This document shows, piece by piece, positions 4,184 to 19,420 of a DNA stretch of 64,000 bases (position 1 is its first letter; every line of letters begins with the position of its first letter). A program made the translations under genes and the position numbers. Under the pieces are notes generated by a model that was not told the DNA's origin, did no database searches, and worked only from the letters and a program-made list of their open reading frames with translations. Source of the stretch: a bacterium (GTDB lineage Bacteria; Desulfobacterota_D; UBA1144); NCBI GenBank assembly GCA_018654605.1, contig JABILG010000019.1:88742-152741 (forward strand), written 5' to 3'.

Positions 4184-4780
4184 ATGCTTAATTCACCAGT
4201 TCTTGTATTGAATAATTTTTTTTTTCCTGTTGACACAACAAGCGTTAAAAGGGCTTTTTTAATGCTCTACATAGGAGCGGCAAAAGCTGTGGATATGAAC
4301 TATGAGACATTTGATTTTGATACATGGAGTGAAATATCTATTTTAAAGAAGTCGGAATCAATTAGGACAGTTTCGAAAGTAATAAGGATACCTAGAGTTA
4401 TTATAGTCTTAAGATATGACAAGGTTCCAAATAAAGAGGTTAAATTTAATCGCTATAACATATTTAGGAGAGATAGGTCAGAGTGCCAGTATTGTAGAAA
4501 GCCGTTCCCAAGGAATGAGCTAACTATTGACCATGTCCATCCTAAATCATTGGGTGGAAAAACAATATGGGAAAATGTTGTCTGTTGTTGTATCGCGTGC
4601 AATAGGAATAAAGGTAGTAATATTCTAAGTTCCACTAATATGAGCTTGGCTGTTAAACCAAGCAAACCTTCATGGGAGTTATTATCAAATCTCTATATGC
4701 AGACAATTAAATTTGATGAATGGAAACCTTTTTTAAGTTCTATTGAGACATCATATTGGAACGTTGAACTGGAAGAATAA
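4184..4780 (+). CDS. HNH endonuclease family protein (stand-alone)
   Basis: CQYCRKPF...IDHVHPKSLGG...WENVVCCCIACNRNKG, a HNH/McrA-type zinc-finger nuclease motif; 198 aa. Confidence 0.75.
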   Translation: MLNSPVLVLNNFFFPVDTTSVKRAFLMLYIGAAKAVDMNYETFDFDTWSEISILKKSESIRTVSKVIRIPRVIIVLRYDKVPNKEVKFNRYNIFRRDRSECQYCRKPFPRNELTIDHVHPKSLGGKTIWENVVCCCIACNRNKGSNILSSTNMSLAVKPSKPSWELLSNLYMQTIKFDEWKPFLSSIETSYWNVELEE

Positions 4781-5475: not shown

Positions 5476-8100
5476 ATGAAATCATCTGATATAAGAAAGA
5501 AGTTTTTGGATTTTTTTAATGATAAAAGTCATGGCTTAGTTGCAAGTTCTGGTCTAATTCCTAAGAATGATCCAACTTTATTATTTACTAATGCTGGCAT
5601 GGTTCAATTTAAAAATGTTTTCTTGGGTTTAGAGAAGTTTAAACATGCTCGGGCTGCATCTTGTCAAAAATCCCTAAGGGCAGGCGGAAAGCATAATGAT
5701 TTAGAGAATGTGGGAAGAACTAGTAGGCACCATACTTTTTTTGAAATGCTGGGAAATTTTTCATTTGGAGACTATTTTAAAGAAGACGCAATATCTTTTG
5801 CTTGGGAGTTTCTAACTAAAGAACTAAAGATAGATAAGAACAGGCTGTATATAACTGTCCACAATGGAGACAATGAGGCTAGAGAGATTTGGCTTAACTC
5901 AATAAAGATCAACAAAGATAGAATATATAAATTAGGTGATAAGGATAATTTCTGGTCTATGGGCGACACAGGACCATGTGGACCCTGTTCTGAGATTATG
6001 TATGACATAGGAGAGGCAAATTCGAATTGCCTAAACCCGGAGAATTGTTCTGTTGAATGTGAGTGTGGAAGATTTCTTGAAATATGGAATCTAGTTTTTA
6101 TGCAATTTAATAGAGGTGAGGATGGACAGCTTACACCTTTACCAAGGCCAAGCATCGATACTGGCATGGGCTTAGAAAGACTAGCATCAGTTCTGCAAGA
6201 TGTTAAAAGTAATTATGATACCGACCTATTTGAATATTTGACTAATTATGTTGCTACTTTCTTGGGGACAGAGTATGGGAAAGACAACGAAACAGATATA
6301 TCAATTCGAGTTTTATCCGATCATGCAAGAGCTGTGACTTTCTTAATCTCAGATGGTGTCATTCCTTCTAGCGAAGGTAGAGGATATGTAGCTAGAAGAA
6401 TACTAAGAAGAGCCGTACGTCACAATAAGAAGTTGGGAATTTCAGATCCTTTCTTACATAACCTTGTCGGTTTAGTTGTTGAGGAGATGAAGAGTTTTTA
6501 TCCGGAGTTGGGAAGTCAAAAGGATAACATTATTTCAATCGTCATAAACGAAGAAAAGAAGTTCTTATCAACCATAGATAGGGGATTTGACCAGCTTAAG
6601 GAAGCTATGAGTATGTCTTCAAGAACAAAGGTTCTCTCAGGGAAGGATGTATTTAAGCTTTATGACACCTATGGTTTTCCAGTAGATTTAATTGAAGACA
6701 TCGTAAGTGAAACAGACTATGTATTGGATATGAAAGCATACGAAGAAGAGATGCTTAATCAAAAGAATTCGTCAAAGAAAGCTTCGAAATTTAAGAATTT
6801 AGTGGGAGAGGCAATTGATTTAACAAAGATTATCAATCTGGATAATATAACAAAATTTGTTGGATATAATAGTCTTGATTTAGAGTCTAAAATTTTAGCA
6901 ATAATTAAAGATGACGAAATTGTTAGCTCTGCCTTTGAAAAAGAAAGAGTAGGGGTCGTATTAAAGTCTTCACCGTTCTATGCAGAATCTGGTGGTCAAA
7001 TAGGTGATAAAGGAGTTATTGAAACATCCTCATCCATAATTGATGTATTTGATACACAGAAAACAAAAGAAGGGTTCTTTATTCATAGTGGGATAGTAAA
7101 GAGAGGTGAAGTTAGGAATGGTGATAAAGCTAATGGTAGAGTTGATAAAATCTTCAGAGACCGAATATCTGAGCATCATTCTGCCACTCATATACTTCAT
7201 TCTTCTCTAAGAGAAATACTTGGTACCCATATTAGGCAAGCAGGCTCATTGGTAAAGAGCGATAGATTAAGATTTGATTTTAGTCATTTTTCAAATATTG
7301 ATAATGACACCCTCAAAGAAATCGAGAATTTATCAAATGAAAGAATCAGAATGAATAATGAAATTGTGATTCAAGAAAATGTTGAGTACAAAAAAGCTAT
7401 TAAAAATGGGGCAACCGCTTTTTTTGAAGATAAGTATGGTGACTTTGTTAGAGTGGTTAGAATAGGAGATTTTAGTATGGAGCTTTGTGGTGGGACACAT
7501 ATAAATAGTTCTGGTCAAATAGGTTCCCTATATATTTCATCTGAATCATCTATATCGTCTGGTATTAGGAGAATTGAGGCACATGTTGGAGAATCAGGTT
7601 TTAAGTATATAAGTAATATCAAGGATTTTTTAACAACCTCTTCTTCTTTGCTTAATTCGTCAATTGAGAAAGTACCTAATAGCATAGAAAGAATACAGAA
7701 AGAGAACGACGCTCTAAGATTAAAGGTTTCCTCGTTTGAGAAAAAAGCAACCAAGAGCCTAGCGGACCAAGTCTTGTCAGATTGTGAATCCTTTGATGAT
7801 ATCAAGATAGTTTCTTATTTAGGTAAAGATATGACTTCATCTCAATTGAAGAACCTTTGGGACGACTTAAAGAAAAATAAAAATGTTATTGCCCTCTTAG
7901 CTTCAAACAATAGAGAAAGTTCGATAATAATTTGTGCTGCTAGTAAAGGTATAAAGAATTTCGATTGTAAGGTTTTTCTAAATGAAATTGCTACTAATAT
8001 TAATGGAAAAGGTGGTGGCAAGAGCAACCTAGCACAATTTGGTTGTGACACCATTAATAGTCTTGATGAGATTGTAGTGCTTATTAAAAATCAGCTGTAA
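5476..8100 (+). CDS. alaS: alanine--tRNA ligase
   Basis: 874 aa; FLDFF..KSHGLVASS..NDPTLLFTNAGMVQFK class II AlaRS N-terminus, editing domain HxxxH motifs. Confidence 0.95.
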   Translation: MKSSDIRKKFLDFFNDKSHGLVASSGLIPKNDPTLLFTNAGMVQFKNVFLGLEKFKHARAASCQKSLRAGGKHNDLENVGRTSRHHTFFEMLGNFSFGDYFKEDAISFAWEFLTKELKIDKNRLYITVHNGDNEAREIWLNSIKINKDRIYKLGDKDNFWSMGDTGPCGPCSEIMYDIGEANSNCLNPENCSVECECGRFLEIWNLVFMQFNRGEDGQLTPLPRPSIDTGMGLERLASVLQDVKSNYDTDLFEYLTNYVATFLGTEYGKDNETDISIRVLSDHARAVTFLISDGVIPSSEGRGYVARRILRRAVRHNKKLGISDPFLHNLVGLVVEEMKSFYPELGSQKDNIISIVINEEKKFLSTIDRGFDQLKEAMSMSSRTKVLSGKDVFKLYDTYGFPVDLIEDIVSETDYVLDMKAYEEEMLNQKNSSKKASKFKNLVGEAIDLTKIINLDNITKFVGYNSLDLESKILAIIKDDEIVSSAFEKERVGVVLKSSPFYAESGGQIGDKGVIETSSSIIDVFDTQKTKEGFFIHSGIVKRGEVRNGDKANGRVDKIFRDRISEHHSATHILHSSLREILGTHIRQAGSLVKSDRLRFDFSHFSNIDNDTLKEIENLSNERIRMNNEIVIQENVEYKKAIKNGATAFFEDKYGDFVRVVRIGDFSMELCGGTHINSSGQIGSLYISSESSISSGIRRIEAHVGESGFKYISNIKDFLTTSSSLLNSSIEKVPNSIERIQKENDALRLKVSSFEKKATKSLADQVLSDCESFDDIKIVSYLGKDMTSSQLKNLWDDLKKNKNVIALLASNNRESSIIICAASKGIKNFDCKVFLNEIATNINGKGGGKSNLAQFGCDTINSLDEIVVLIKNQL

Positions 8101-8974
8101 TACCATTTTTAACAAGAATTTTTTTTATTTTTTTTATTGCAGATTTCTCAATTTGCCTCACTCGCTCCCTAGAAATCTTAAATTTTTCTCCCAATTTTTC
8201 TAAAGTAACTTGTTTGTCAGATAATAATCTATTCTTTATTATGTAAGCTTCTCTTTCATTAAGAGTTTCTATAGCTTCCTTCAAGCTGGACTCTAATTCT
8301 TTCTTTTGCTGATCCTCTATTATTATATCTTCCTGACTTTGTGAACCAGAAGGCAAAAAGTCAATCTTTGTTTGTTTTTCATTTGCCTTAATTTCGTCGT
8401 CTAGAGAGTAGTCTTTTCCACCCATCCTTTGATCCATTTCTTTTATTTCTTTAATTGAGACCTTAAGATCTCTAGATAATTTTGAATAGTATTCCTCTAA
8501 GGAAAGATCTCCAGAGTTGTATAAACTTTTAGCCGACCTTATTTTGTAGAATAGTTTTCTTTGTCCTTGTGTTGTTCCTATCTTTACAAGACTCCAGTTC
8601 TTCATTATAAAATTTTGTATGTATGCTCTTATCCACCATACTCCATAGGAAATTAATCTATATCTCTTTGTCGGATCAAATTTAGTAACTGCTTGCATAA
8701 GGCCAAGGTTTCCCTCTTGTATAACATCCATTAAATTGAGACCATAGTTTTTATATTCCATAGCAATTTTTACTACAAATTTAAGGTTTGCAGTTATTAG
8801 CTTCCTAGCGGATTCTAGGTTACCCGAGTCCCTATATTCCTGAGCATATTTTGCTTCTTCTTCACGTGATAAGATTTTATAATTACTTATTTCTGTCAGA
8901 TATTTCTCCAGTGAATTTGCTGGTACTGGCAGATTCTTATTATTATTCTTTAGCTTATTATTATTTTTCCTCAT
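8084..8974 (-). CDS. rpoH: RNA polymerase sigma-32 (heat-shock sigma factor)
   Basis: Sigma-70 regions 2-4; QGQRKLFYKIR matches the RpoH box Q(R/K)(K/R)LFFNLR; 296 aa. Confidence 0.8.
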   Translation of the reverse strand: MRKNNNKLKNNNKNLPVPANSLEKYLTEISNYKILSREEEAKYAQEYRDSGNLESARKLITANLKFVVKIAMEYKNYGLNLMDVIQEGNLGLMQAVTKFDPTKRYRLISYGVWWIRAYIQNFIMKNWSLVKIGTTQGQRKLFYKIRSAKSLYNSGDLSLEEYYSKLSRDLKVSIKEIKEMDQRMGGKDYSLDDEIKANEKQTKIDFLPSGSQSQEDIIIEDQQKKELESSLKEAIETLNEREAYIIKNRLLSDKQVTLEKLGEKFKISRERVRQIEKSAIKKIKKILVKNGITADF

Positions 8975-9084: not shown

Positions 9085-9157
9085 TCCGGAGTAGCTCAGC
9101 TGGCAGAGCAGGTGACTGTTAATCACTTTGTCGGGGGTTCAAATCCCTCCTCCGGAG
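9085..9157 (+). tRNA. tRNA-Asn (anticodon GTT), no encoded CCA
   Basis: Cloverleaf: 7-bp acceptor stem TCCGGAG/CTCCGGA, D-arm AGCTCAGCTGGCAGAGC, anticodon loop CTGTTAA (U33, GUU, A37), T-loop GGTTCAAATCC. Confidence 0.85.
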
Positions 9158-9183
9158 CGATAGTAATCGTAAACTATCATTAA

Positions 9184-9435
9184 TTGGTTATAATTTACAT
9201 TATAATTATGAGAAATTTTCTTTGCTCTTTCTTTATACTGTTCTTTTTCTCTCGTACCGCTTTTGCATATATAGACCCAGCGTCTGGAAGTACTATAATA
9301 TCGCTTATTATTGGAGGCACAGTGTTAATAGGAGTCTTTCTGAAGACTTTTTGGTATAAGCTTAAATCGTTAGTTGGGATTAAAGATGTAAACAATAAAC
9401 CTGTTAGGACAACTGAAAACAATAAGAACCTGTAA
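9184..9435 (+). CDS. small signal-peptide/TM protein, first gene of the operon (stop overlaps next start as TAATG)
   Basis: MRNFLCSFFILFFFSRTAFA signal-like segment followed by a second hydrophobic helix; translational coupling to next ORF. Confidence 0.35.
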   Translation: MVIIYIIIMRNFLCSFFILFFFSRTAFAYIDPASGSTIISLIIGGTVLIGVFLKTFWYKLKSLVGIKDVNNKPVRTTENNKNL

Positions 9436-12428
9436 TGGATACTCCTAATGTCTTCATTCTTGGTGCATCCTATCCAATAGCCGGGAAACAACCATCGAGT
9501 CTTCAAAGTATCACTGAAAAAACTAAAGTGCTCGATTGGCAGCTTGATAGTTTTAAGTCGATTAATTGGAAGAAGATTAATTTTCTAGGTGGTTACAATA
9601 TAGAAGATATTATAAAACATTACCCAGAAGTTAATTATATTTTAGTTGAAAATTGGGAATCAAATTCTTTACTAGATACTTTTTTTCAATGTCCTATGGA
9701 AGATTCTCCCGCTATTTTCACTTATGCAGATACGATTTTTCGTCCGGAGATTTTAAAGAAAATATCAAAAAGCAAAGCAGATATTGCTGTTGCGATAGAT
9801 ATTAACTATGAAACTCGTTATGATAATCGTTCGAAAGCTGATATAGGAATTGCAGAGATAATTATTCCTAATCACGGAGAATTTAAAGGTCAGAATTCTG
9901 AATTTACTGGTCTCTTTGGCATGCAACCTCATGTTGCCAAAATAGTAAGGACAATAAAGGGTAAGATTCCAGGGGTAAACCTCTTGGACCTTCTTTCTTA
10001 TTTTGAGAAAAGTGGATTACATATTGATTATATTGACGTTGGAACTAATTGGGCTGAATTGAACGAGCCACAAGATATAGCAAGGTTTATATTGGGGAAT
10101 AAAGCTCAGACATTGTCAAGATTAGCCCCTATGGTTAGGAAGAGTAAAATTGGAAAGCAGATTAGCTTTACTGTTAATGAGTGGTTCAACAAGAAGGATT
10201 TAATTATTTCAGAGATTCAAGAATTTTTTCATGAGAAGAGATTAATCATAAGAAGTAGTGCGTTAGATGAAGATGGATGGAGCAACTCCCTTGCCGGCCA
10301 ATACAAAAGTATCCCAAATGTAGATAGTGGTTCAATTAAGTCGATAATTAAAGTCGTTAAGGAAGTTATATCGTCTTATGGTGGAAGTAGAAATGATAGC
10401 AATGACGAAGTCTTAATTCAGGAATTTCTTGATGATATAAGTATTTCTGGCGTAGTATTTACATGTCAGTTAGAAACAGGTGCGCCTTATCATACTTTTA
10501 ATTTTCAAGATACTGAAGGTTCAATAGAAGCGATAACCTCAGGCACATCTCAAGATGACAGAACTATTGTATTACATAGAAGGGAAATTGCAGAATTAAA
10601 GAAGTTGGAACCAAAGCTTGAACCAGTCAGAAAGGCGATAGACGAATTAAAAGACTTGCTGTCTTTTGATAAATTAGATATCGAGTTTGCAATAGACAAG
10701 AAAGGACTAGTTCATATTCTTCAGGTTCGACCAATTGCAGTAGACCACAGAGAGTACGACGATGTAACTAATTTATTTGAGGACAAACTAGATGAGGCAG
10801 CTGCTTTATTTGTTTCTTTCCAAGATCAATCAGATGTCCTCTTAGGTAGCACAACATCTTTTAGTAATATGTCAGATTGGAATCCTGCGGAAATTATTGG
10901 AATTCATCCTAATCCTTTAGCTTTTAGCCTCTATAGGTTTTTGATAACTGATGATGTTTGGGCTGAACAACGTTCAGAGTTTGGTTATCGTAAAATTAAG
11001 GAATGCCCATTAATCATTGCATTTTGTGGTCAGCCCTATGTCGATTTACGAGCTAGCTTCAATTCCTTTATCCCAGCCAACATTGATAGCACATTAGCAA
11101 AGAAGTTAATTACAGCCTATCTAGGCAACCTATCTTCCAGACCTCAGTATCATGATAAAATTGAGTTTGATATTGCGATGACTTCATGGACGCCAACTTT
11201 TAGAAGGGATGCAGAGGAAAGATTGATTTCTTGGGGTATAAATTCTAAAGAAATTAATAAACTTGAAGAAGGATTAAAGCTAATAACCTCAAGGGCCATA
11301 ATAAATTTTGAGAAAAATACTTCTATTGAAACTTTGACAAAAAATCGCGACAAAATTTTACAAAATAAAATGGGATTGTTAAACAAAGGACTTTCTTTGC
11401 TTGTTGATTGTAAGAAGAATGGGACGCTAGCCTTCGCACATTCTGCACGACATAGCTTTGTTGCCATAAGTTTTCTTAAGAGTTTTATAGAAATTGATAT
11501 ATTCACTAAAGACGAAGTAGACTTGCTATTATCTTCCATCGAGGGTGTTTCTACTAGTATGCGAAAGAACCAAATTGCTTTACTCGATCGTAAAATTACC
11601 TTGGATGAGATGATTCTAAAATACGGCCACCTGCGCCCAGGTACATACGACGCTACGGCTCCTGCCTATTGGGAAGACTCTCAGTATTATTTAAAAGCAG
11701 AAAATAGTAATATGAATATAAAGTCCTCAAATTTTGATTTATCTAAAAAACAGGAAAACTCGATAGTGGAATTTATGAAGGATCTTGGTGTAAGTATTGC
11801 TCCCAATAAGCTAATTAATTATATGAAAAGTGCAATTGTAGCTCGAGAGGAAACAAAGCTAGAATTTACTCGTAATTTAAGCCTGGCGTTAGACTGTTTC
11901 GTAGAATTTGGCAAAGAGATTGGGTTAAGTCGTAAGGAGGTTGTTTATTTAGAATATAAGGATTTTGAACAACTTAGTTTAGATGGTTTAGATTTTAATG
12001 AAGTTAAACAAATTATTAGTTCTCGTATGACTCAAGACAAGCTGAATCATATGTTTGAGATTCCGCCATTTATAAAAAGTAAAGAAGATTTTTATTGTTT
12101 TGAGCATTATGATGCTCAAATAAATTATATTACCAATAAGAAGATTATTGGTAAATTAAAGAATTTAAATACAAGAGTTCACGACAATTTAGAAGGCAAG
12201 ATTATTTTGACACATCAGGCCGATCCTGGGTACGATTGGGTTTTTAGTCGTAATATTGTTGGATTGATAACTGAACATGGTGGCGCTAACTCTCACATGG
12301 CGATTAGAGCAGCTGAACTAGGATTACCCGCCGCTATAGGTATAGGTAGCAAGTTGTTCAATAAATTAGCCAAAAGTAATAAAATTAAATTAGATTGTGG
12401 TAACCATAATATTATAATTATTAATTGA
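9435..12428 (+). CDS. fusion protein: N-terminal LicC-like nucleotidyl(cytidylyl)transferase domain + PPDK/PEP-synthase-type ATP-grasp domain + C-terminal phosphohistidine 'swivel' domain (glutamine-kinase / rifampin-phosphotransferase-like architecture)
   Basis: aa ~1-230 N..Y...N...SL and WAELNEPQD resemble LicC-type NTases; middle RSSALDEDGWSNSLAGQYKS is the PPDK_N ATP-grasp motif; C-terminal ITEHGGANSHMAIRAAELGLPAAIG is the PEP-utilizing mobile His motif (His codon 12294-12296); no TIM-barrel domain after it. Confidence 0.6.
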   Translation: MDTPNVFILGASYPIAGKQPSSLQSITEKTKVLDWQLDSFKSINWKKINFLGGYNIEDIIKHYPEVNYILVENWESNSLLDTFFQCPMEDSPAIFTYADTIFRPEILKKISKSKADIAVAIDINYETRYDNRSKADIGIAEIIIPNHGEFKGQNSEFTGLFGMQPHVAKIVRTIKGKIPGVNLLDLLSYFEKSGLHIDYIDVGTNWAELNEPQDIARFILGNKAQTLSRLAPMVRKSKIGKQISFTVNEWFNKKDLIISEIQEFFHEKRLIIRSSALDEDGWSNSLAGQYKSIPNVDSGSIKSIIKVVKEVISSYGGSRNDSNDEVLIQEFLDDISISGVVFTCQLETGAPYHTFNFQDTEGSIEAITSGTSQDDRTIVLHRREIAELKKLEPKLEPVRKAIDELKDLLSFDKLDIEFAIDKKGLVHILQVRPIAVDHREYDDVTNLFEDKLDEAAALFVSFQDQSDVLLGSTTSFSNMSDWNPAEIIGIHPNPLAFSLYRFLITDDVWAEQRSEFGYRKIKECPLIIAFCGQPYVDLRASFNSFIPANIDSTLAKKLITAYLGNLSSRPQYHDKIEFDIAMTSWTPTFRRDAEERLISWGINSKEINKLEEGLKLITSRAIINFEKNTSIETLTKNRDKILQNKMGLLNKGLSLLVDCKKNGTLAFAHSARHSFVAISFLKSFIEIDIFTKDEVDLLLSSIEGVSTSMRKNQIALLDRKITLDEMILKYGHLRPGTYDATAPAYWEDSQYYLKAENSNMNIKSSNFDLSKKQENSIVEFMKDLGVSIAPNKLINYMKSAIVAREETKLEFTRNLSLALDCFVEFGKEIGLSRKEVVYLEYKDFEQLSLDGLDFNEVKQIISSRMTQDKLNHMFEIPPFIKSKEDFYCFEHYDAQINYITNKKIIGKLKNLNTRVHDNLEGKIILTHQADPGYDWVFSRNIVGLITEHGGANSHMAIRAAELGLPAAIGIGSKLFNKLAKSNKIKLDCGNHNIIIIN

Positions 12429-12444
12429 GGTACAATTTATAATT

Positions 12445-13074
12445 ATGAAGATATTAGCTATAAGCCAAAGAGTAGAAAATATTTATGAATACTCTGAGAA
12501 ACGCGATTGCTTAGATCAAAGGTGGACCAGCCTGATTCATAGGCTTGGTTTTTTGCCTCTTCCTTTATCTAATCTTGCTTCACCCTCAGAGTTTATAGAA
12601 AATATAACCCCTTCAGCCATTATCTTAAGTGGAGGAAACAATATAGCCAAAGTAGATAAATTAGCTTTAGATGTTTCAACTGAGCGAGATAAATTTGAAG
12701 AAAGATTAATCAAGATTGCAATAAAGAAAAATATCCCAATTATAGGTGTGTGTAGGGGGATGCAAATGATCAACTTGTTCTTTGATGGATCAATGTCGCA
12801 GGTTGTGAATCACACAGGCGTCAAACACGAGATTACTTTTGTAGGTAAATATTTAGAAGAAGAATCTAGAGAAGTTAATAGTTACCATAGATGGTGTATT
12901 CAGGAGCCAGGTCTCGGAAGGTCGTTAGTTCCATTAGCTATAGCGAACGACGGAACAGTCGAGTCTTTTTATCATGAAAAGTATCCAATTCTTGGTATTA
13001 TGTGGCACCCTGAACGAGAGGAGCCACACGTGCAGGACGATTTAAATCTTATTAAAAAGTTTGTTCAATCATGA
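12445..13074 (+). CDS. class I glutamine amidotransferase-like / peptidase C26 family hydrolase
   Basis: GVCRGMQMIN nucleophile-elbow Cys, downstream HPE catalytic His/Glu; 209 aa. Confidence 0.7.
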   Translation: MKILAISQRVENIYEYSEKRDCLDQRWTSLIHRLGFLPLPLSNLASPSEFIENITPSAIILSGGNNIAKVDKLALDVSTERDKFEERLIKIAIKKNIPIIGVCRGMQMINLFFDGSMSQVVNHTGVKHEITFVGKYLEEESREVNSYHRWCIQEPGLGRSLVPLAIANDGTVESFYHEKYPILGIMWHPEREEPHVQDDLNLIKKFVQS

Positions 13075-13850
13075 GGGCACTAATTCTAGCCGCTGGTGAA
13101 GGCTCAAGATTAAGGCCATTAACTAAAGATAAACCTAAAGCTTTAGTAGAACTTTGTGATAAGACTTTACTTGAAAGACAAGTCTCAATCTTACAAAAAG
13201 CTGGTATTACCGATATTGCGATAGCAACCGGCTACAAAGGAGAGCAAATACAAGAGTTGGGTTTTAATTGTTATCATAATCCTGATTATGCCACTAGCAA
13301 TATGGTTTATAGTCTTTTTAATGCTTTGCCGTTTTTGGAAAGAGAAGGAGATTTAATAATATCTTATGGTGATATTGTTTACGAGTTAGACAATTTAAAA
13401 AAAATAATTACGTCAGATGCAGCTGTAAATGTAATGGTAGATAAGGAGTGGTTTAAATATTGGAAGATGAGATTTGTAGATCCTTTAACAGATGCAGAGA
13501 GTCTAATATTAAATGATGATGGAACAATAAAGGAGCTGGGTTTAAAAACAGAGAGCTATAACGATATTCAAGGTCAGTATATTGGGTTAATAAAAGTAAG
13601 ACGTGATAAGTTGAAAGCTTTAATAAGTTTTTATCATAATCTAAAGATAAAAAAATCATCTAATATTAAAGATCTTAATAATATGTTTTTAACAGATTTT
13701 ATACAATTGTTAATCAATGCAGACTGGGATATAAGGGCTATATTAATTAGTGGAGGATGGTTGGAGGTAGACTCTTTAAAAGATCTTAATCTTTATGAGG
13801 GATTAGCAAAAAGTAAGGAGCTAGATTCTTATTGTAGGTTAGATAAGTGA
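13071..13850 (+). CDS. sugar-/alcohol-phosphate nucleotidyltransferase (LicC/CTP:phospho-X cytidylyltransferase-like)
   Basis: MRALILAAGEGSRLRPLTKDKPKALVEL signature; ATGA overlap with upstream gene. Confidence 0.8.
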   Translation: MRALILAAGEGSRLRPLTKDKPKALVELCDKTLLERQVSILQKAGITDIAIATGYKGEQIQELGFNCYHNPDYATSNMVYSLFNALPFLEREGDLIISYGDIVYELDNLKKIITSDAAVNVMVDKEWFKYWKMRFVDPLTDAESLILNDDGTIKELGLKTESYNDIQGQYIGLIKVRRDKLKALISFYHNLKIKKSSNIKDLNNMFLTDFIQLLINADWDIRAILISGGWLEVDSLKDLNLYEGLAKSKELDSYCRLDK

Positions 13851-14989
13851 GAACTTTTTTTAAACAACTAAGTCAATTGATTAGCTTTACTCAGTTATCA
13901 AAAGCTGAGAAAAGTATAGTCTTTTATTCTGAAGGCAAAGATTCTTGGATACATTTAAAAGGACTTATAGAGGAATTTTTGAAAACTTCTAAAATACATA
14001 TTTGCTATATAAGCTCTGAAGAGAATGACCCTGGTTTAAACTTAAAAGATCCTAAATATAAAGCTTTTTGTATAGGAAGTGGATATATGAGGGATTGGTT
14101 GTTTTCTAATATTCAGACAAACATAATGGTTATGACAATGCCTGACTTAAACTCTTTTCAGCTGAAGCAATCTAGCTATAATGTGCACTATGTTTATCTA
14201 CAGCACTCGTTAGTTAGCCTTCATATGGCATACCGTAAAGGCGCCTTTGATTATTTTCAAACTATTTTTTGTGCTGGAGCACATCACGTTAAGGAGCTGA
14301 GACGTATTGAACAGATTCAGAATTTGAAGCCTAAGAATCTTGTTCAGCATGGTTATAGCCGTTTAGATCAGATTATAAAAGAAACCCCTAGAAATTTAAG
14401 AATTACCAGATCTCTTAAACCTATTAAGCATATATTGATTGCACCTTCGTGGGGGGAAAATACTATTATTGATATGATTGGCGAGGAATTAGTTAGCATA
14501 TTGTTAACAGATGGGTTCAAAGTTACTTTGCGCCCTCATCCTCAGACTATCAAATTATCATGGCATAAAGTAGAGCAAATATTAAAAAAGCATGAAGCAA
14601 ATTCTTTATTTAATTTAGAGGTTGAGATGTCTAGCCAAGTATCTCTAAGTGAATCTGATTTGATGGTTAGTGATTGGTCAGGCGCCGCGCTGGACTATGC
14701 GTTTGGTCTCAATAAGCCTGTATTATTTATCGATCTTCCAAAAAAAGTGAATAATTATGATTATAATGAACTAGAAATTGAACCTCTTGAGGTATCTATC
14801 CGTTCAAAAATAGGCGGGATTCTTGCTTTAGATGAGTTGCCTAATATAGCAACTTGTATTAACGCTTTATTAAAGAGTTATGATAATCAAAAGCTGATGC
14901 AGCTTTCTAATGATACGGTGTATAATTTAGGGTCTGCTGACAGTGTTGGCGTCCAAGCGTTAGAAGAATTAATTAATAATAATGTATGA
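13847..14989 (+). CDS. CDP-glycerol glycerophosphotransferase (TagB/TagF) family phosphotransferase
   Basis: LIAPSWGEN (cf. TagF YAPTWR) and MVSDWSGAALDYAFGLNKPVLFIDLP (cf. LITDYSS...DF..L.KP) motifs; GTGA overlap start. Confidence 0.6.
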   Translation: MRTFFKQLSQLISFTQLSKAEKSIVFYSEGKDSWIHLKGLIEEFLKTSKIHICYISSEENDPGLNLKDPKYKAFCIGSGYMRDWLFSNIQTNIMVMTMPDLNSFQLKQSSYNVHYVYLQHSLVSLHMAYRKGAFDYFQTIFCAGAHHVKELRRIEQIQNLKPKNLVQHGYSRLDQIIKETPRNLRITRSLKPIKHILIAPSWGENTIIDMIGEELVSILLTDGFKVTLRPHPQTIKLSWHKVEQILKKHEANSLFNLEVEMSSQVSLSESDLMVSDWSGAALDYAFGLNKPVLFIDLPKKVNNYDYNELEIEPLEVSIRSKIGGILALDELPNIATCINALLKSYDNQKLMQLSNDTVYNLGSADSVGVQALEELINNNV

Positions 14990-17253
14990 CGATGAGATAT
15001 AAACAAGCAGTAAACTTATTAGCCTTCTTTAGCTTGGTAATCTTTGTAGTTATACCAGGCACTCTCTATTTGTTTAACCATAATCAATGGAACTATGATT
15101 ATTGGCTTCTAATATATTTCTGTGGATTTGGTGCGATAAGTTTTATTGCTCTATATCTTGTTTACTATGCGATTAATAAATTCTCTAACAGGTATGCAGA
15201 AATATTCGCCTATATTATCTTTTCTATAGGCTTAATTACATTATTGAATGATACATTGTCCCCAGTCCAGCTTGGCTTGTTGGATGGAAGTAGGATTCAT
15301 AGCAATGAGCCATTCTTCTATACATTAATTGAATCCATCATCACTTTTATAGCTATAGGATTTGTATGGTTTTCGGTTAAGAAAAATAAACAGTGGATAT
15401 ATATAATTATCAAACCCATATATTTCGTGAGTGCAGGACTGATTATCTTTAGCCTGGTACTTCAGGATGGCTTTCAAGAGAAAGAAGAGGCTAAGAATAA
15501 ATTGCAAGTTCGAGAGTTGCCTAATATATACCACTTCCATATTGATGGTATGCAAACAGACTATTTTTTACGTTATATAAATAATCATCCAGAAGTTAAA
15601 AAGAAGCTTGAAGGTTTTACACTATTTGAAAAGAACATTGCTAATTATCATAGTACAATGTTGTCTTTACCTAGTTATATGACCAGTACAACACATTTAG
15701 AAGGTAGGTTTGATAAATGGCTGAAGAGTTATGACCAGGGCCTACTGAGAAAATTAAAAAAGCGAGGCTATAGATTAGTCCATAATAGCAACGCTCCTTA
15801 TAGAAGTAATTATTTTGATAAGATAATCGCGATTCCAGAACTGTTAAAAAGATATAACGGTGCTCAACATCTATCTATAGTAGAATTTACCAGGATATGG
15901 CTGACTAAAATAATTCCTAATTTCTTAACAAATGAATCTTTATCCCTAGGAAAAGAAATTGGTAAACGTTTTTTTTATATACTCAATCCTAATCATGACA
16001 CAGACATTGCGTTAACCATGGAAGATGGGACAGCGGCACTATCTGGGATTCTATTATTTAAAGACATGATGTCAGATATTGATTATTACTCGCGTCCTAA
16101 TCAGTACGTATTCTCTCTTAATTCTATTCTACACGATAGCTATGTTAGTTCTCCAAGCTGTAAGATAGAAAAAAGACCTGATTTTCCGGTAGCCCAAAGA
16201 TACTACCGACAGCTTGAGTGTGCAATGATGCTCATTGAAGAATTTGTGTACACACTAAAAAGCCTAGATCGCTATAATGATTCACTAATTGTGATTCATG
16301 GTGATCATGGGTCTGCCTATGCGGGTCAACTGCTAGATTTCCAAGATAGTTCCTTTCAAACAAACATGGATAACGCGGACATGTCACCTTTCGACACTGT
16401 AATTGGGAGTAAAAGCTTAAAAGTGCTTGAATCCAAGGCTAGGGCATTGTTAATGGTTAAGCCTATATTCGCCACTGGTGAAATGGTTATATCTAATCTT
16501 CCTACACATTTACTAGATGTGTATCCAACCATCATGGGACAGATTGGTGTTAATAATCTAGAGAACATTAAAGGCGTAGATTTATTCAGCAATAAAGATA
16601 TACAAGACAGACAGCGTTATTTTTATTACATGGGTGGTAGTTCGCATCATGCTCAAATAACAAATTATCATACTATGATTCCGGATTATGATGGTAATTC
16701 GGGTATTTTATCGTTGGTTCCAAAGAGTACAGGTAAAACAACGGCAAAATCTTTCTTTAAGAATGCAAAAGATATAAAAGAATATAGAGATATTAAGTTC
16801 TATTACACAACTGTGAACGGGAAGCTTGAAAATAATAGAGCTTGGATATTCGTTGAAGGAATAGACCTTCCTCGAAATTGGGGATCCTGGACAAACAGTG
16901 ACAAGGTTACCTTAGCCTTTGTGCCAGAGAATCCAAGCCCGTTAGAATATAGAGCATTAACTTTAAGGATATCTGATATATTCGTTAACTTTAAAAATCC
17001 ACAGCTTAGCGCCAAGTTTTATTTAAATAAAAAATTAATTGGCTCACTAGTTTTTGGTATGCCTAAGAGCCAATACTCTTTTCCACAAGATGTTGAATTT
17101 GAACTCTCTAAGGATCTAATTATTTATGACCAGCCCAATGTGTTGGAGATATATATAGAAGGAGCTAATTCAGAAAGAGGTTTAGGAATAGGTGTAGATG
17201 ATAGAAAACTAGGGCTGGCTCTAGTTGAGTTATCATTAAAAAAATATAAGTGA
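14986..17253 (+). CDS. polytopic membrane protein with sulfatase/alkaline-phosphatase-superfamily catalytic domain (LtaS/EptA/OpgB-like phospho-group transferase) plus ~200-aa C-terminal extension
   Basis: ~5 N-terminal TM helices; NIYHFHIDGMQTDYF metal-site region and VIHGDHGSAYAG (GDHG) sulfatase motif; ATGA overlap start. Confidence 0.6.
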   Translation: MTMRYKQAVNLLAFFSLVIFVVIPGTLYLFNHNQWNYDYWLLIYFCGFGAISFIALYLVYYAINKFSNRYAEIFAYIIFSIGLITLLNDTLSPVQLGLLDGSRIHSNEPFFYTLIESIITFIAIGFVWFSVKKNKQWIYIIIKPIYFVSAGLIIFSLVLQDGFQEKEEAKNKLQVRELPNIYHFHIDGMQTDYFLRYINNHPEVKKKLEGFTLFEKNIANYHSTMLSLPSYMTSTTHLEGRFDKWLKSYDQGLLRKLKKRGYRLVHNSNAPYRSNYFDKIIAIPELLKRYNGAQHLSIVEFTRIWLTKIIPNFLTNESLSLGKEIGKRFFYILNPNHDTDIALTMEDGTAALSGILLFKDMMSDIDYYSRPNQYVFSLNSILHDSYVSSPSCKIEKRPDFPVAQRYYRQLECAMMLIEEFVYTLKSLDRYNDSLIVIHGDHGSAYAGQLLDFQDSSFQTNMDNADMSPFDTVIGSKSLKVLESKARALLMVKPIFATGEMVISNLPTHLLDVYPTIMGQIGVNNLENIKGVDLFSNKDIQDRQRYFYYMGGSSHHAQITNYHTMIPDYDGNSGILSLVPKSTGKTTAKSFFKNAKDIKEYRDIKFYYTTVNGKLENNRAWIFVEGIDLPRNWGSWTNSDKVTLAFVPENPSPLEYRALTLRISDIFVNFKNPQLSAKFYLNKKLIGSLVFGMPKSQYSFPQDVEFELSKDLIIYDQPNVLEIYIEGANSERGLGIGVDDRKLGLALVELSLKKYK

Positions 17254-17310
17254 TTTTTTCATATTTATTATTTATATTTACTACTATCTTGTAAACTAAA
17301 GGAGATTTTT

Positions 17311-17688
17311 ATGGTTTTATTCACTAAAGTTACCGGATTAATTTTAATTTTTCTTGGAGGATTGGGATATTATTTATATGAAACTCGTACTGTATTAATT
17401 CCTATAATCTTGGGCTCGTTAATTCTCATTTTAGGATTGGTTGCAGATAATCTAAACAGAAAAAGAATGGCTATACACATCGCTGTAATGTTAACAGTAG
17501 TGGGTCTGGTTGTGTGCTGGAGCGGAATCAAAGAACTTCCGCTATTGTTATCTTGTGGTGGAATATTGACTTGTGATGCGGTAAATAGACCCGTTGCAGT
17601 TTTATTTAGGTCAACAATGTTCATCGTTCTTTTTCCTTACTTTATTGCTTCAATAATATTTTTTATTAAAGCAAGAATGAGTAAATAA
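17311..17688 (+). CDS. hypothetical 4-TM membrane protein
   Basis: Strong RBS AAAGGAG 7 nt upstream; four hydrophobic helices. Confidence 0.4.
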   Translation: MVLFTKVTGLILIFLGGLGYYLYETRTVLIPIILGSLILILGLVADNLNRKRMAIHIAVMLTVVGLVVCWSGIKELPLLLSCGGILTCDAVNRPVAVLFRSTMFIVLFPYFIASIIFFIKARMSK

Positions 17689-17709
17689 ATATTTGGTATA
17701 ATATGATTA

Positions 17710-18153
17710 ATGGGATTCCCAAAGATAAAATCTAATATATCAGAGATTAGCTCTTATACGGGTAGCAAAGAGAAGTATCCAATGTTCATAGCAAGAGTTC
17801 AGGCAGGCTTCCCTTCGCCAGGAGATGACTATATTGAAAAGAATCTTGATTTAAATGAGCTTTTAATAAAGAACCCCTCGGCAACTTTTTTTGTAAAAGT
17901 TGAAGGAGATTCTATGGTTAACGCTGGAATAAACTCGGGGGATACTTTAGTCGTAGATAAAGCGGTAGAGGCCAAAGACAAGAGTGTGGTAATTGCTTAT
18001 ATTAATGGAGAATTGACAGTTAAAAGGATTTGGCTTGGAAAGGGAAAGGTTTTTTTAAACCCTGAGAATGAAGATTTTAGCCCTATAGAAGTTACAGAAG
18101 AGACAGATTTTGATATATGGGGAGTCGTGACCTACGTAATACATAAGGTTTGA
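17710..18153 (+). CDS. umuD: translesion DNA polymerase V accessory subunit UmuD (S24 peptidase, LexA-like)
   Basis: [40 protein letters not shown] aligns closely with E. coli UmuD including AG cleavage site, Ser (GDSM) and Lys (KRIW..GK). Confidence 0.8.
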
Positions 18154-18154
18154 T

Positions 18155-19420
18155 ATGAGTAAGTATATAGCTTTAATTGATTGTAATAATTTCTATGCCT
18201 CATGTGAGCGCGTATTTGACCCATCATTACAAGATAAGCCAGTTGTTGTTCTCTCTAATAATGATGGATGTGTTATCGCGAGGTCTGCCGAAGCTAAGAT
18301 GGTTGGAATAAAGATGGGAGAGCCATTGTTCAGGTGCAAAGATATTATTAAGAAAGAGTCGGTAAGAGTTTTTTCATCTAACTATACTTTATATGCGGAC
18401 ATGTCTAATAGGGTAATGAGCATCATTAAGAATCATTTTGAAGACGTAGAGATTTATTCTATAGATGAGGCATTTGTTTTTATTGAGACAATTTCAGTTG
18501 ATAATTTATCTAAAGAGCTTGTAGCTTTAAGAAATAAAATCTTAAAATGGACTGGGATACCTGTATCTATAGGTGTGTCGACAACAAAGACTTTGGCAAA
18601 ATTAGCAGGAAGAAAAGCAAAAAAGAATTTAGGCGTTTACTGCCTTTGTGCTCGTAAAGATTTTACCAATGTTTTGAGAGAAACACCGGTAGGATCAGTC
18701 TGGGGGATAGGACGTAGGTTAGAAAAAAGAATTCTTTTAAAGGGCATATCTAATGCTTACCAGTTAAGTTTTTTTGATCACAAAAAAGCCAGAAGTCTTG
18801 GTAGTATAAACCTTGTTCGCACCATTTTGGAGCTTAATGGGCTTTCATGTCTGGGTATTGATTCAGCACCTGAGAACAAAAGACAGATTACAACTTCTAG
18901 GGCTTTTGGAAGCCCCATATATACCTTAGATTTGCTTCAGGAGGCAGTTTCAGTGTATATGTCTCGCGCTGCCGAAAAGCTGAGATTTCAGGGTTCAAGT
19001 TGCTCTACTATTACTGTAGCTCTTTCTACAAATCGTTTTAGTCAAAGAGAAGATTATAAGTTCCTTGTTAAAACCCAATCATTAATTTCTTCGACAGACT
19101 CAACGTCTAAGCTGATTAGTGTAGGTAAAGAAATTTTAGAGTCTATATTTAAGAAAGGACTCGGCTATAAGAAGGCTCATATCTTTCTTTCCGGCCTGGA
19201 GAAATCTACCTCAAAACAATATTCGCTAGAAGATAATGTTGCTTCTATAGCCAAGGAGACGAACCTTATGAGAGTGCTGGATAGGCTAAATATTTTCTAT
19301 GGTAGAGATACATTGAAATATGCTAGTACAGGGATTTCACGTGATTGGCTTATGAAAAGAGAGAAGAAATCTCAAAGCTATACAACTAATTGGAGCGAGA
19401 TTCTTACAATACAACTATAA
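18155..19420 (+). CDS. umuC: Y-family DNA polymerase V catalytic subunit UmuC
   Basis: [20 protein letters not shown]...[16 protein letters not shown]-terminus typical of UmuC; 421 aa; 1-nt spacing from umuD. Confidence 0.85.

Follow-up and report, generated by a model that had tools for sequence, protein, structure and literature searches.

A glutamine-kinase-type operon in a probable Dadabacteria relative, predicted to make a phosphoramidate donor and to couple it with TagF-like and LtaS-like enzymes

Six same-strand open reading frames (ORFs), here called g1 to g6, occupy positions 9184/9208–17253 of the 64,000-nucleotide (nt) stretch of contig JABILG010000019.1 analyzed in this work (hereinafter the window), with g7 as the next ORF downstream (Table 1). 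As an earlier reading made from the sequence alone (hereinafter the sequence-only reading) had claimed, the genes are chained, their successive junctions, read directly from the sequence, being TAATG, a 16-nt gap, ATGA, GTGA and ATGA; likewise, the tRNA-Asn that it placed next to the operon was recovered with both ARAGORN and Rfam. All Pfam matches of g2–g6 lie above the gathering scores, and the three domain types of Campylobacter-type donor synthesis, whose meeting in one operon had been proposed, were all found, namely the kinase, the C26-family hydrolase and the LicC-type nucleotidyltransferase (NT). We consider it fairly probable that the operon forms a self-contained module for making a cytidine diphosphate (CDP)-activated phosphoramidate donor from L-glutamine and installing the group on the cell envelope.

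Table 1. Features of the operon region, in positions of the window.
Feature	Position	Strand	Basis or remark
tRNA-Asn (GTT)	9085..9158	+	ARAGORN; Rfam RF00005, 66.7 bits; landmark directly upstream, no functional part in the pathway
g1, small membrane protein, 75 aa	9208..9435	+	ATG at 9208 the likelier start; ORF open from TTG at 9184
g2, 997 aa	9435..12428	+	NT-fold domain plus likely glutamine-kinase-type core
g2 residues 1-212, divergent LicC/Cj1416-like NT-fold domain	9435..10070	+	hhalign against the g4 family
g2 residues 213-997, likely L-glutamine-kinase-type core (Cj1418/MpnA-like)	10071..12428	+	NF004508, PPDK_N, PEP-utilizers
g3, 209 aa, gamma-glutamyl-CDP-amidate-hydrolase-like (Cj1417/MpnB-like), class-I amidotransferase fold	12445..13074	+	Peptidase_C26, NF045546
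g4, 259 aa, LicC-family nucleotidyltransferase, probable Cj1416/MpnC equivalent	13071..13850	+	NTP_transf_3, NTP_transferase
g5, 380 aa, GTG start, TagF-like (GT-B fold), proposed phosphoramidate transferase	13847..14989	+	Glyphos_transf
g6, 755 aa, LtaS/PbgA/EptA-type membrane enzyme, proposed periplasmic phospho-head-group transferase	14986..17253	+	Sulfatase
g7, 125-aa membrane protein, 4 transmembrane helices	17311..17688	+	57 nt 3' of g6; doubtful operon member

The architecture of g2, described beforehand as a fusion of about 1000 residues that combines nucleotidyltransferase, ATP-grasp and phosphohistidine parts, held up on closer analysis: Pfam detects PPDK_N and PEP-utilizers only, which gives the order ATP-grasp, middle domain and phosphohistidine swivel domain, and hhalign finds an NT fold at the N-terminus. 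The NCBIfam model NF004508 (PRK05849) matches g2 with 873.8 bits (cut-off 501), residues 213–996 corresponding to model positions 4–788 of 789. Pfam and NCBIfam searches of g2 recovered no PEP-utilizers_C domain, that is, no phosphoenolpyruvate (PEP)/pyruvate-binding TIM barrel, and the models for PpsA, PPDK and rifampin phosphotransferase cover only the ATP-grasp and phosphohistidine domains, with 20–66 bits against cut-offs of 450–1700 (the best PpsA model reaches 66 bits, with a cut-off of 883). With no TIM barrel and an end-to-end match to NF004508, g2 is not a true PpsA or PPDK, the alternative that the sequence-only reading had itself raised. The motif GGANSHMAIRA, with the catalytic-type His954, is invariant across 118 g2 homologues, and homologues of 45–54% identity carry the name 'glutamine kinase' in IMG. 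NF004508 also matches the stand-alone kinases of clusters that contain an adenosine 5'-phosphosulfate (APS)-kinase-like gene and a methyltransferase (923 bits in the Maridesulfovibrio locus L007; homologous loci are denoted here by such L numbers). Unlike stand-alone kinases, which measure 780–802 aa in L007 and L010, g2 reaches 997 aa through an added NT-fold domain of 212 aa. Judged by these sequence relationships, residues 213–997 are likely to be of the L-glutamine-kinase type.

The next two genes encode the remaining families of the predicted donor pathway. The g3 protein is recognized by Peptidase_C26 (95.8 bits) and GATase in Pfam, and its best NCBIfam model is NF045546, the Cj1417 equivalog for gamma-glutamyl-CDP-amidate hydrolase (158.4 bits; next family 45). 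Its prior placement with peptidase C26/Cj1417-like enzymes, and not with TrpG/PabA, is upheld by this lead of more than 100 bits. On the hydrolases of clusters that contain a Cj1415-type kinase (L007, L011 and L010) the same model scores 105, 90 and 83 bits, below its score on g3. The catalytic triad Cys103/His188/Glu190 lies within GVCRG (101–105) and WHPE (187–190). As for g4, which had been called a second LicC-like nucleotidyltransferase, it proved to be a canonical member of the LicC family (NTP_transf_3 and NTP_transferase in Pfam; best PDB relative LicC, 1jyk), with the canonical loop AAGEGSRLRPLTKDKPKAL and the signature AAGEGSR...KPKAL, YGDIVY and WLEVD. Because it is 35–39% identical to the sole NT of the non-fused clusters of glutamine kinase, C26 hydrolase and NT (L006–L011), g4 is the probable CTP:phosphoglutamine cytidylyltransferase (CTP, cytidine triphosphate), equivalent to Cj1416/MpnC, an assignment judged through those clusters and not from Cj1416 itself. 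This triad of glutamine kinase, C26 hydrolase and g4-like NT is kept in every locus examined, fused or not.

The N-terminal domain of g2 presents a different picture. Pfam gave no match to residues 1–212 even at E<=1, and hhalign identifies the domain as homologous, along its entire length, to the g4 family (probability 99.7%, 209 aligned columns). Compared with that family, its signature loop for NTP binding is short by 5 residues and holds no invariant R or K, so that the canonical G-x-G-x-R...P-K loop is lacking; most members have R/K at positions 13 and 19, where the window has Y13 and Q19. The invariant residues are G10, A11, P14, G17, P20, D99, D122, R128, R132, D136, E156, W206, E208 and N210, and the domain retains the Asp of YxDTxF, a family-specific D-x(5)-R-x(3)-R-x(3)-D-x(2)-AE insert and W-x-E-x-N. 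No other part of g2 is as weakly conserved (38% mean identity vs 50–54% for the catalytic domains), and the domain occurs almost only at the N-terminus of proteins of about 1000 aa (621 representatives at 50% identity, E<=1e-3). Since a separate g4-type NT is kept in every fused locus, each has two NT-fold units. Thus, of the earlier claim that the kinase is fused to a cytidylyltransferase, the fusion to an NT fold stands, and the identification of the fused domain as the Cj1416-like cytidylyltransferase does not, the canonical enzyme being g4. We infer that the N-domain is an accessory paralogue for docking and channelling or for product sensing, with a second catalytic role possible.

The proposed transfer machinery begins with g1, previously read as a small signal-peptide protein. 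A signal-like h-region followed by A-x-A is present as stated; the product also has one transmembrane (TM) helix, at odds with a plain secreted protein, as well as a Y-I-D-P-(G/A)-S-G-S motif and a basic K-x-(F/Y)-W-Y-K tail. It has no match in Pfam, NCBIfam or PADLOC and is conserved in L001, L005, L016, L019 and L020. In Colwellia psychrerythraea (L014, 14466–15737) the g1 motif (AFA-YLDPGSGS plus the TM helix) forms the N-terminus of a 423-aa TagF-like protein; because of this fusion, g1 would tether g5 to the membrane and is, by sequence, probably the membrane anchor or partner of the TagF-like protein. The description of g5 as TagB/TagF-like agrees with its Glyphos_transf match (PF04464; 35.6 bits, cut-off 22.1), with the TagF-like GT-B fold that a fold search recovered from its predicted structure, and with the retention of the TagF-family motifs, while searches of the PDB by single sequence and by profile gave no match. 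The protein is predicted to be soluble and to be held by g1 against the cytoplasmic side of the membrane. Orthologues of the g5 type are 48–59% identical across phyla and are always accompanied by g1 and a g6-like gene; the TagF-like proteins of capsule loci belong to unrelated lineages without g6. Among the 13 loci with enough flank, a Glyphos_transf gene adjoins the fusion in 12 (the window, L001, L003, L005, L012, L014, L016, L018, L019, L020, L021 and L023), L017 being the only one without such a gene.

That g6 is a polytopic enzyme of the sulfatase superfamily, as had been suggested, is confirmed by its Sulfatase match (35.2 bits, cut-off 25) and by an AlphaFold2 model (mean predicted local distance difference test score, pLDDT, 80) with five N-terminal TM helices (~5–161), which the hydropathy of the sequence also supports, an alkaline-phosphatase-superfamily domain (~180–560) and a C-terminal beta-sandwich (~560–755). 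With Foldseek the best full-length relatives are PbgA/YejM (6v8q, 6xlp), followed by LtaS, LtaP and sulfatases; a g6 family profile recovered LtaP (4e-8) and LtaS (2e-7) from the PDB, where a single-sequence search returned noise only. The family conserves HxDGMQTD, with S227, S230 and H383 invariant; D187 aligns with the Glu of the LtaS 'HLES' motif and GDHG (439–442) with the LtaS GDH. The probable nucleophile, judged from the motifs, is a Ser of S-x-P-S, and by the positive-inside rule the catalytic domain would be periplasmic. The beta-sandwich gives a weak DUF7024/galactosidase-ABD hint. A g6-like gene follows immediately after the g5-type gene in seven loci (the window, L001, L005, L014, L016, L019 and L020), and the identity of g6 across phyla is 22–53% vs 48–59% for g5. 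This far stronger conservation of g5 is compatible with g5 having a conserved donor and lipid acceptor and with a final acceptor of g6 that varies.

The fusion arrangement of about 1000 aa is widespread in marine bacteria of several phyla, and also on plasmids, and is not a one-off (1903 homologue matches). Its carriers include, in the Gammaproteobacteria, Pseudothioglobus/SUP05, Ruthia, Colwellia, Shewanella, Psychromonas, Photobacterium, Vibrio plasmids, Sinobacterium and an Osedax symbiont, and, outside them, Rhodobacterales plasmids and Dadabacteria. Two contexts recur. In the one, the core lies within polysaccharide loci, with lineage-specific TagF-like proteins and no sulfatase-type gene (wza/wzz/wzx in Shewanella pealeana, wza-wzb-wzc/wzx/wzy in Photobacterium swingsii and an exopolysaccharide [EPS] locus on a Vibrio alfacsensis plasmid). 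In the other, a stand-alone module (the window, L016, L019, L020, L005 and L014) comprises g1, the fusion, the C26 hydrolase, the NT, a g5-type gene and one or two membrane sulfatase-type genes. The glycan- or envelope-related role that had been assigned to the operon gains contextual support from the presence of the core in capsule/O-antigen and EPS loci; the transfer steps and the acceptor are what we infer. In two of the stand-alone modules YidC-like (60KD_IMP) paralogues follow the sulfatase-type gene (L019, 18758–19888; L020, 15985–16722; 109 and 96 bits), and in Colwellia (L014, 15741–18155) a YidC-like region is fused to it; no gene of this sort is present in the window. These paralogues are possible insertases for g6 or flippases for a lipid intermediate.

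The non-fused clusters differ in their accessory genes. The Maridesulfovibrio cluster (L007) comprises the kinase, the C26 hydrolase, the NT, a methyltransferase and an APS-kinase-like gene, which is the Campylobacter gene set. An APS-kinase-like (MpnD-type) gene and a methyltransferase likewise accompany the non-fused cluster of Azospirillum lipoferum 4B plasmid p6 (L022, 4641–14107); the Azospirillum kinase makes up the C-terminal end of a protein of 846 aa with no Pfam match in its first 650 residues. In both loci the candidate transferases are sulfotransferase-fold proteins, and since clusters with the MpnD-type gene carry such sulfotransferase-domain proteins, this suggests that they use 3'-phospho-CDP-amidate in a manner resembling that of 3'-phosphoadenosine 5'-phosphosulfate (PAPS). 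The fused locus L003 combines a strong Glyphos_transf gene with two sulfotransferase genes (7236–8129 and 14562–15437). In Serratia plymuthica NBRC 102599 (L010, 10013–17199) the non-fused kinase, C26 hydrolase and NT are followed by genes for an alpha-amylase-family protein, a 257-aa protein and a major facilitator superfamily (MFS) transporter, with no polysaccharide genes in the locus; this cluster may represent a small-molecule phosphoramidate or glycoside pathway. A non-fused cluster in a Balneolaceae metagenome-assembled genome (MAG; L011, 2976–7636) encodes the kinase, the C26 hydrolase, a CysQ/inositol-monophosphatase-family protein, a TagF-like protein, an NT, a methyltransferase and a deoxynucleoside kinase (dNK)-like kinase; TagF-like partners are thus met also next to a kinase and a candidate 3'-nucleotidase.

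The host, which the sequence-only reading had supposed to be a proteobacterium, is not borne out as such: the nearest genome is a Candidatus Dadabacteria MAG (L001; g2 78%, alaS 66% and the sigma factor 79% identical), and by sequence the host is probably a marine Dadabacteria relative (class Candidatus Dadabacteria, Thermodesulfobacteriota). Because lnt is encoded in the window, it is a diderm. The whole order g1–g6 is kept in L001 (69–79% identity) and in a Pseudothioglobus genome (L016; 38–59% identity), and the arrangement is therefore more than chance. The 53–57% identity of g2, g5 and g6 to SUP05-clade proteins suggests that the whole module has moved horizontally between phyla.

As regards its genomic setting, the operon lies amid housekeeping genes (hisD, hisC, lnt, alaS, a sigma-70-family factor, umuDC and polA). 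In L001 it is likewise directly preceded by tRNA-Asn. The gene order is tRNA-Asn, g1–g6, g7, umuD and umuC in the window (9085–19420), and tRNA-Asn, g7', umuDC, a second tRNA-Asn, g1–g6 and g7 in L001 (6925–18267), where two g7 copies flank the region; the operon thus appears to have been inserted at a tRNA-Asn/g7/umuDC site. L020, an unrelated locus, also has umuDC, 4 kb upstream of the module. Neither an integrase nor an att repeat was found, the GC content of the operon is not distinct from that of its flanks, and an integrated island bounded by an att repeat of the tRNA-Asn 3' end was set aside, no second copy being present in the window. Membership of g7 in the operon is unlikely, the gene being kept only in the Dadabacteria relative L001 and absent from L016, L019 and L020; its one Pfam match, to YtpI, is sub-threshold. 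A PADLOC search of the seven proteins (g1–g7) returned no anti-phage defence match for any of them, and a defence role was rejected accordingly. An Rfam scan of the region for riboswitches and other RNAs returned the tRNA only, and a scan for promoters and terminators gave counts no better than those of shuffled sequence. Elsewhere in the window, a stand-alone HNH endonuclease gene (HNH_5; 4184–4780) sits between lnt and alaS in the housekeeping stretch, and alaS (+, ending at 8100) converges on the sigma-70-family factor (−, ending at 8084), their 3' ends overlapping by 17 nt (8084–8100).

The closest characterized counterpart of the donor core is the pathway for O-methyl phosphoramidate (MeOPN) of Campylobacter jejuni (MpnA/Cj1418, MpnC/Cj1416 and MpnB/Cj1417), in which glutamine is converted via phosphoglutamine and CDP-glutamine to cytidine diphosphoramidate (CDP-amidate) and glutamate (bioRxiv 10.1101/2024.11.05.622173; PMC6429109). 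The window operon shares with it the same three enzyme families in one operon, the same predicted product CDP-amidate and a surface-decoration context. Unlike it, the operon has neither the CDP-amidate 3'-kinase of APS-kinase fold (MpnD/Cj1415) nor the S-adenosylmethionine (SAM)-dependent methyltransferases (Cj1419/1420), which predicts an unmethylated group and a donor that is not 3'-phosphorylated; an APS-kinase-like gene and a methyltransferase are likewise absent from the other fused loci. It further differs in the extra N-terminal NT fold of its kinase, in its TagF-like, LtaS-like and small-anchor partners, and in being carried by a free-living marine bacterium. From rifampin phosphotransferase and PpsA, with which it shares the ATP-grasp and swivelling phosphohistidine domains, g2 is set apart by the missing TIM barrel and by scores far below all PpsA, rifampin phosphotransferase and PPDK cut-offs.

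For the passage from g4 to g5 the best precedent, by analogy, appears to be the Type A flagellin system of Clostridioides difficile, in which the LicC/COG1213-type NT FtaB (CD0242) produces a CDP-activated head group of non-alditol type and the TagF-like GT-B enzyme FtaD (CD0244) transfers it to a sugar with release of cytidine monophosphate (CMP); FtaD has been found to transfer the phospho-head group from a CDP-amino acid in vitro. The C. difficile system differs in its head group, phospho-N-methylthreonine, which is joined by P-O and not P-N linkage, and in its cytoplasmic acceptor, a protein-linked GlcNAc; it includes neither a glutamine kinase nor a hydrolase, and it has no periplasmic partner. 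Compared with TagF, TarL, Bcs3 and Cps3D, g5 is minimal, without polymerase-type extra domains and without a CDP-glycerol or CDP-ribitol synthesis gene nearby. With LtaS/LtaP, EptA, OpgB and PbgA (YejM), g6 shares the five N-terminal TM helices and the alkaline-phosphatase fold, predicted to be extracytoplasmic, and it conserves motifs that align with the LtaS metal site. It differs in the extra beta-sandwich and in its genetic linkage to a CDP-donor pathway of the cytoplasm; the known members take their head groups from bulk phosphatidylglycerol (PG), phosphatidylethanolamine (PE) or cardiolipin.

Taken together, these relationships point to the following course of events. In a cytoplasmic reaction series the g2 core would phosphorylate glutamine, g4 would join the resulting phosphoglutamine with CTP to give CDP-L-glutamine, and g3 would remove glutamate from it to leave CDP-amidate; the g2 N-domain, not being the main cytidylyltransferase, may dock g4 to channel the labile phosphoglutamine or may sense the CDP-linked product. 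Since a Cj1415-type 3'-kinase and a methyltransferase are both missing from the operon, CDP-amidate would be used directly: g5, held at the inner membrane face by g1, would employ it as TagF employs CDP-glycerol, moving the phosphoramidate to a hydroxyl with release of CMP and yielding an unmethylated phosphoramide. In the stand-alone operons the acceptor of g5 would be a conserved membrane lipid, which is then flipped, and the periplasmic g6 would pass the head group to the final acceptor, the lipopolysaccharide (LPS) core or another envelope glycan, which its C-terminal beta-sandwich may bind, much as EptA, LtaS and OpgB unload PE or PG. A lipid carrier charged by g5 and unloaded by g6 is proposed because the strongly conserved, membrane-anchored g5 is obligatorily paired with a variable LtaS-like enzyme. 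Where the core lies within capsule or O-antigen loci, a lipid-linked repeat unit is the presumed acceptor. For donor synthesis (phosphoglutamine to CDP-L-glutamine to CDP-amidate) the proposal draws on strong sequence homology and conserved gene linkage, and for transfer by g5 on family, fold, motifs and conserved linkage; the lipid acceptor, the g6 step and the role of the N-domain are more conjectural. As a bolder extension, to which we attach little credence, this could be a novel diderm route in which a TagF-like enzyme charges a membrane lipid with phosphoramidate from CDP-amidate (a 'phosphatidyl-amide'-type carrier), a YidC-like paralogue may help to flip it in some lineages, and an LtaS-like enzyme in the periplasm transfers the N-P group to LPS or glycans.

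Several points weigh against this interpretation. The enzyme functions are read from sequence, and the likeness to Cj1415–Cj1422 comes through family models and not by direct alignment; in particular, g3 stays below the equivalog cut-off of NF045546 (158.4 vs 250 bits), and we take Cj1418 to be a member of NF004508 with only the IMG 'glutamine kinase' names as backing. The analysis covers the 64-kb window, and other parts of the genome could hold a gene for a Cj1415-like kinase or for a methyltransferase. TagF-like enzymes may accept a 3'-phosphorylated donor too, given the combination of TagF-like protein, kinase and CysQ-like phosphatase in L011. The N-domain may be catalytic, since most of its members keep basic residues in the shortened loop, and the retention of two NT-fold units in every fused locus is not fully explained by the model. 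Finally, the lipid intermediate is hypothetical, and g6 could instead act on ordinary phospholipids.

In a first rival, the same donor serves a wholly cytoplasmic decoration, g5 acting on an undecaprenyl-linked glycan or an LPS core precursor, and g6 being a separate EptA/OpgB/LtaS-type transferase that uses PE or PG, or that makes the acceptor, and is co-transcribed for a shared envelope polymer. The Wzx/Wzy and EPS loci of Shewanella, Photobacterium and the Vibrio plasmid, where the core and a TagF-like gene occur without g6, favor it, and to our knowledge all characterized g6 relatives (LtaS, EptA, OpgB) draw on bulk phospholipid donors. Nevertheless, we consider it improbable, as no g5-type orthologue is found apart from g1 and a g6-like gene, g5 and g6 are joined by ATGA coupling in the window, and the TagF-like proteins of capsule loci are of other lineages; moreover, a soluble g5 with a dedicated anchor and very high cross-phylum conservation suggests a conserved lipid acceptor and not species-specific glycans. 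One could also envisage that the end product is itself a novel lipid head group, for example a diacylglycerol- or PG-linked phosphoramidate made by g5, with g6 remodelling or turning over the lipid. The membrane anchoring of g5, the stand-alone position of the operon amid housekeeping genes with no glycosyltransferases nearby, the precedent of COG1213-type cytidylyltransferases that supply lipid head groups (CpgD) and the YidC-like paralogues accompanying the module in L014, L019 and L020 all fit such a lipid; yet the biosynthetic core is repeatedly embedded in polysaccharide loci, and the g6 beta-sandwich, with its weak DUF7024/galactosidase-ABD hint, is more typical of glycan binding, leaving this a distinctly unlikely outcome.

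The chemistry itself might differ, in that another amide or amine is phosphorylated, or that CDP-glutamine or a second CDP compound from the extra NT domain is the donor for g5, g3 serving to edit or recycle. Such a scheme would account for the two NT-fold units of every fused locus and the sub-cut-off score of g3, and it can draw on the reported substrate promiscuity of Cj1416 and on FtaD, where a CDP-amino acid is the direct donor. It is nonetheless quite unlikely: the strict linkage of glutamine kinase, C26 hydrolase and NT across phyla argues that glutamate removal is integral, g3 outscores on the Cj1417 model the hydrolases of clusters with a Cj1415-like kinase, and the N-domain is without the canonical G-x-G-x-R...PK loop. 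We regard as extremely unlikely an ordinary teichoic-acid or phosphocholine locus composed of a PEP synthase, a gamma-aminobutyrate (GABA)-type gamma-glutamyl hydrolase, a phosphocholine cytidylyltransferase and a CDP-glycerol polymerase, which is how RefSeq/PGAP names homologous clusters on the plasmids L021, L022 and L023 (PEP-utilizing enzyme, gamma-glutamyl-gamma-aminobutyrate hydrolase family, phosphocholine cytidylyltransferase family and CDP-glycerol glycerophosphotransferase family). Against these names stand the missing PEP/pyruvate TIM barrel, with PpsA models at <=66 bits vs cut-offs >590, the Cj1417 family as the best model for g3, and the absence from the operon of a tagD-type glycerol-3-phosphate cytidylyltransferase and of a choline kinase; Pfam and NCBIfam searches of the operon and flanks likewise detected no enzymes of CDP-glycerol or CDP-ribitol supply (TagD/TarD, TarI/J) and no priming enzymes.

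Biological N-P bonds are rare. In the literature searched, only one Borg preprint departs from the view of the glutamine-kinase route as a Campylobacter peculiarity, and the glutamine kinase itself has been termed 'C. jejuni-specific'; no description of the fusion, the downstream logic or the module architecture was found there. A donor core of the MeOPN kind is already known; these three aspects appear to be new. The findings indicate that the donor pathway is spread widely among free-living marine bacteria of several phyla and occurs on plasmids too, that it has a distinct form without a Cj1415-type kinase or methyltransferase, and that current RefSeq names hide the function of the homologous genes. 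The step by which MeOPN is transferred to polysaccharide was still open in 2025, and the module offers candidates for such a step in a small, highly conserved TagF-like enzyme followed by an LtaS-like periplasmic enzyme. The LPS cores of Shewanella MR-4 and Xanthomonas campestris are known to bear phosphoramide substituents that are unmethylated, and the module is a candidate source of LPS-core groups of this kind. If the bolder extension above is true, the module would be the genetic basis of the phosphoramide groups of these two organisms, and phosphoramidate decoration would be common in abundant marine bacteria such as the SUP05 clade, Dadabacteria, Colwellia and Vibrionaceae.

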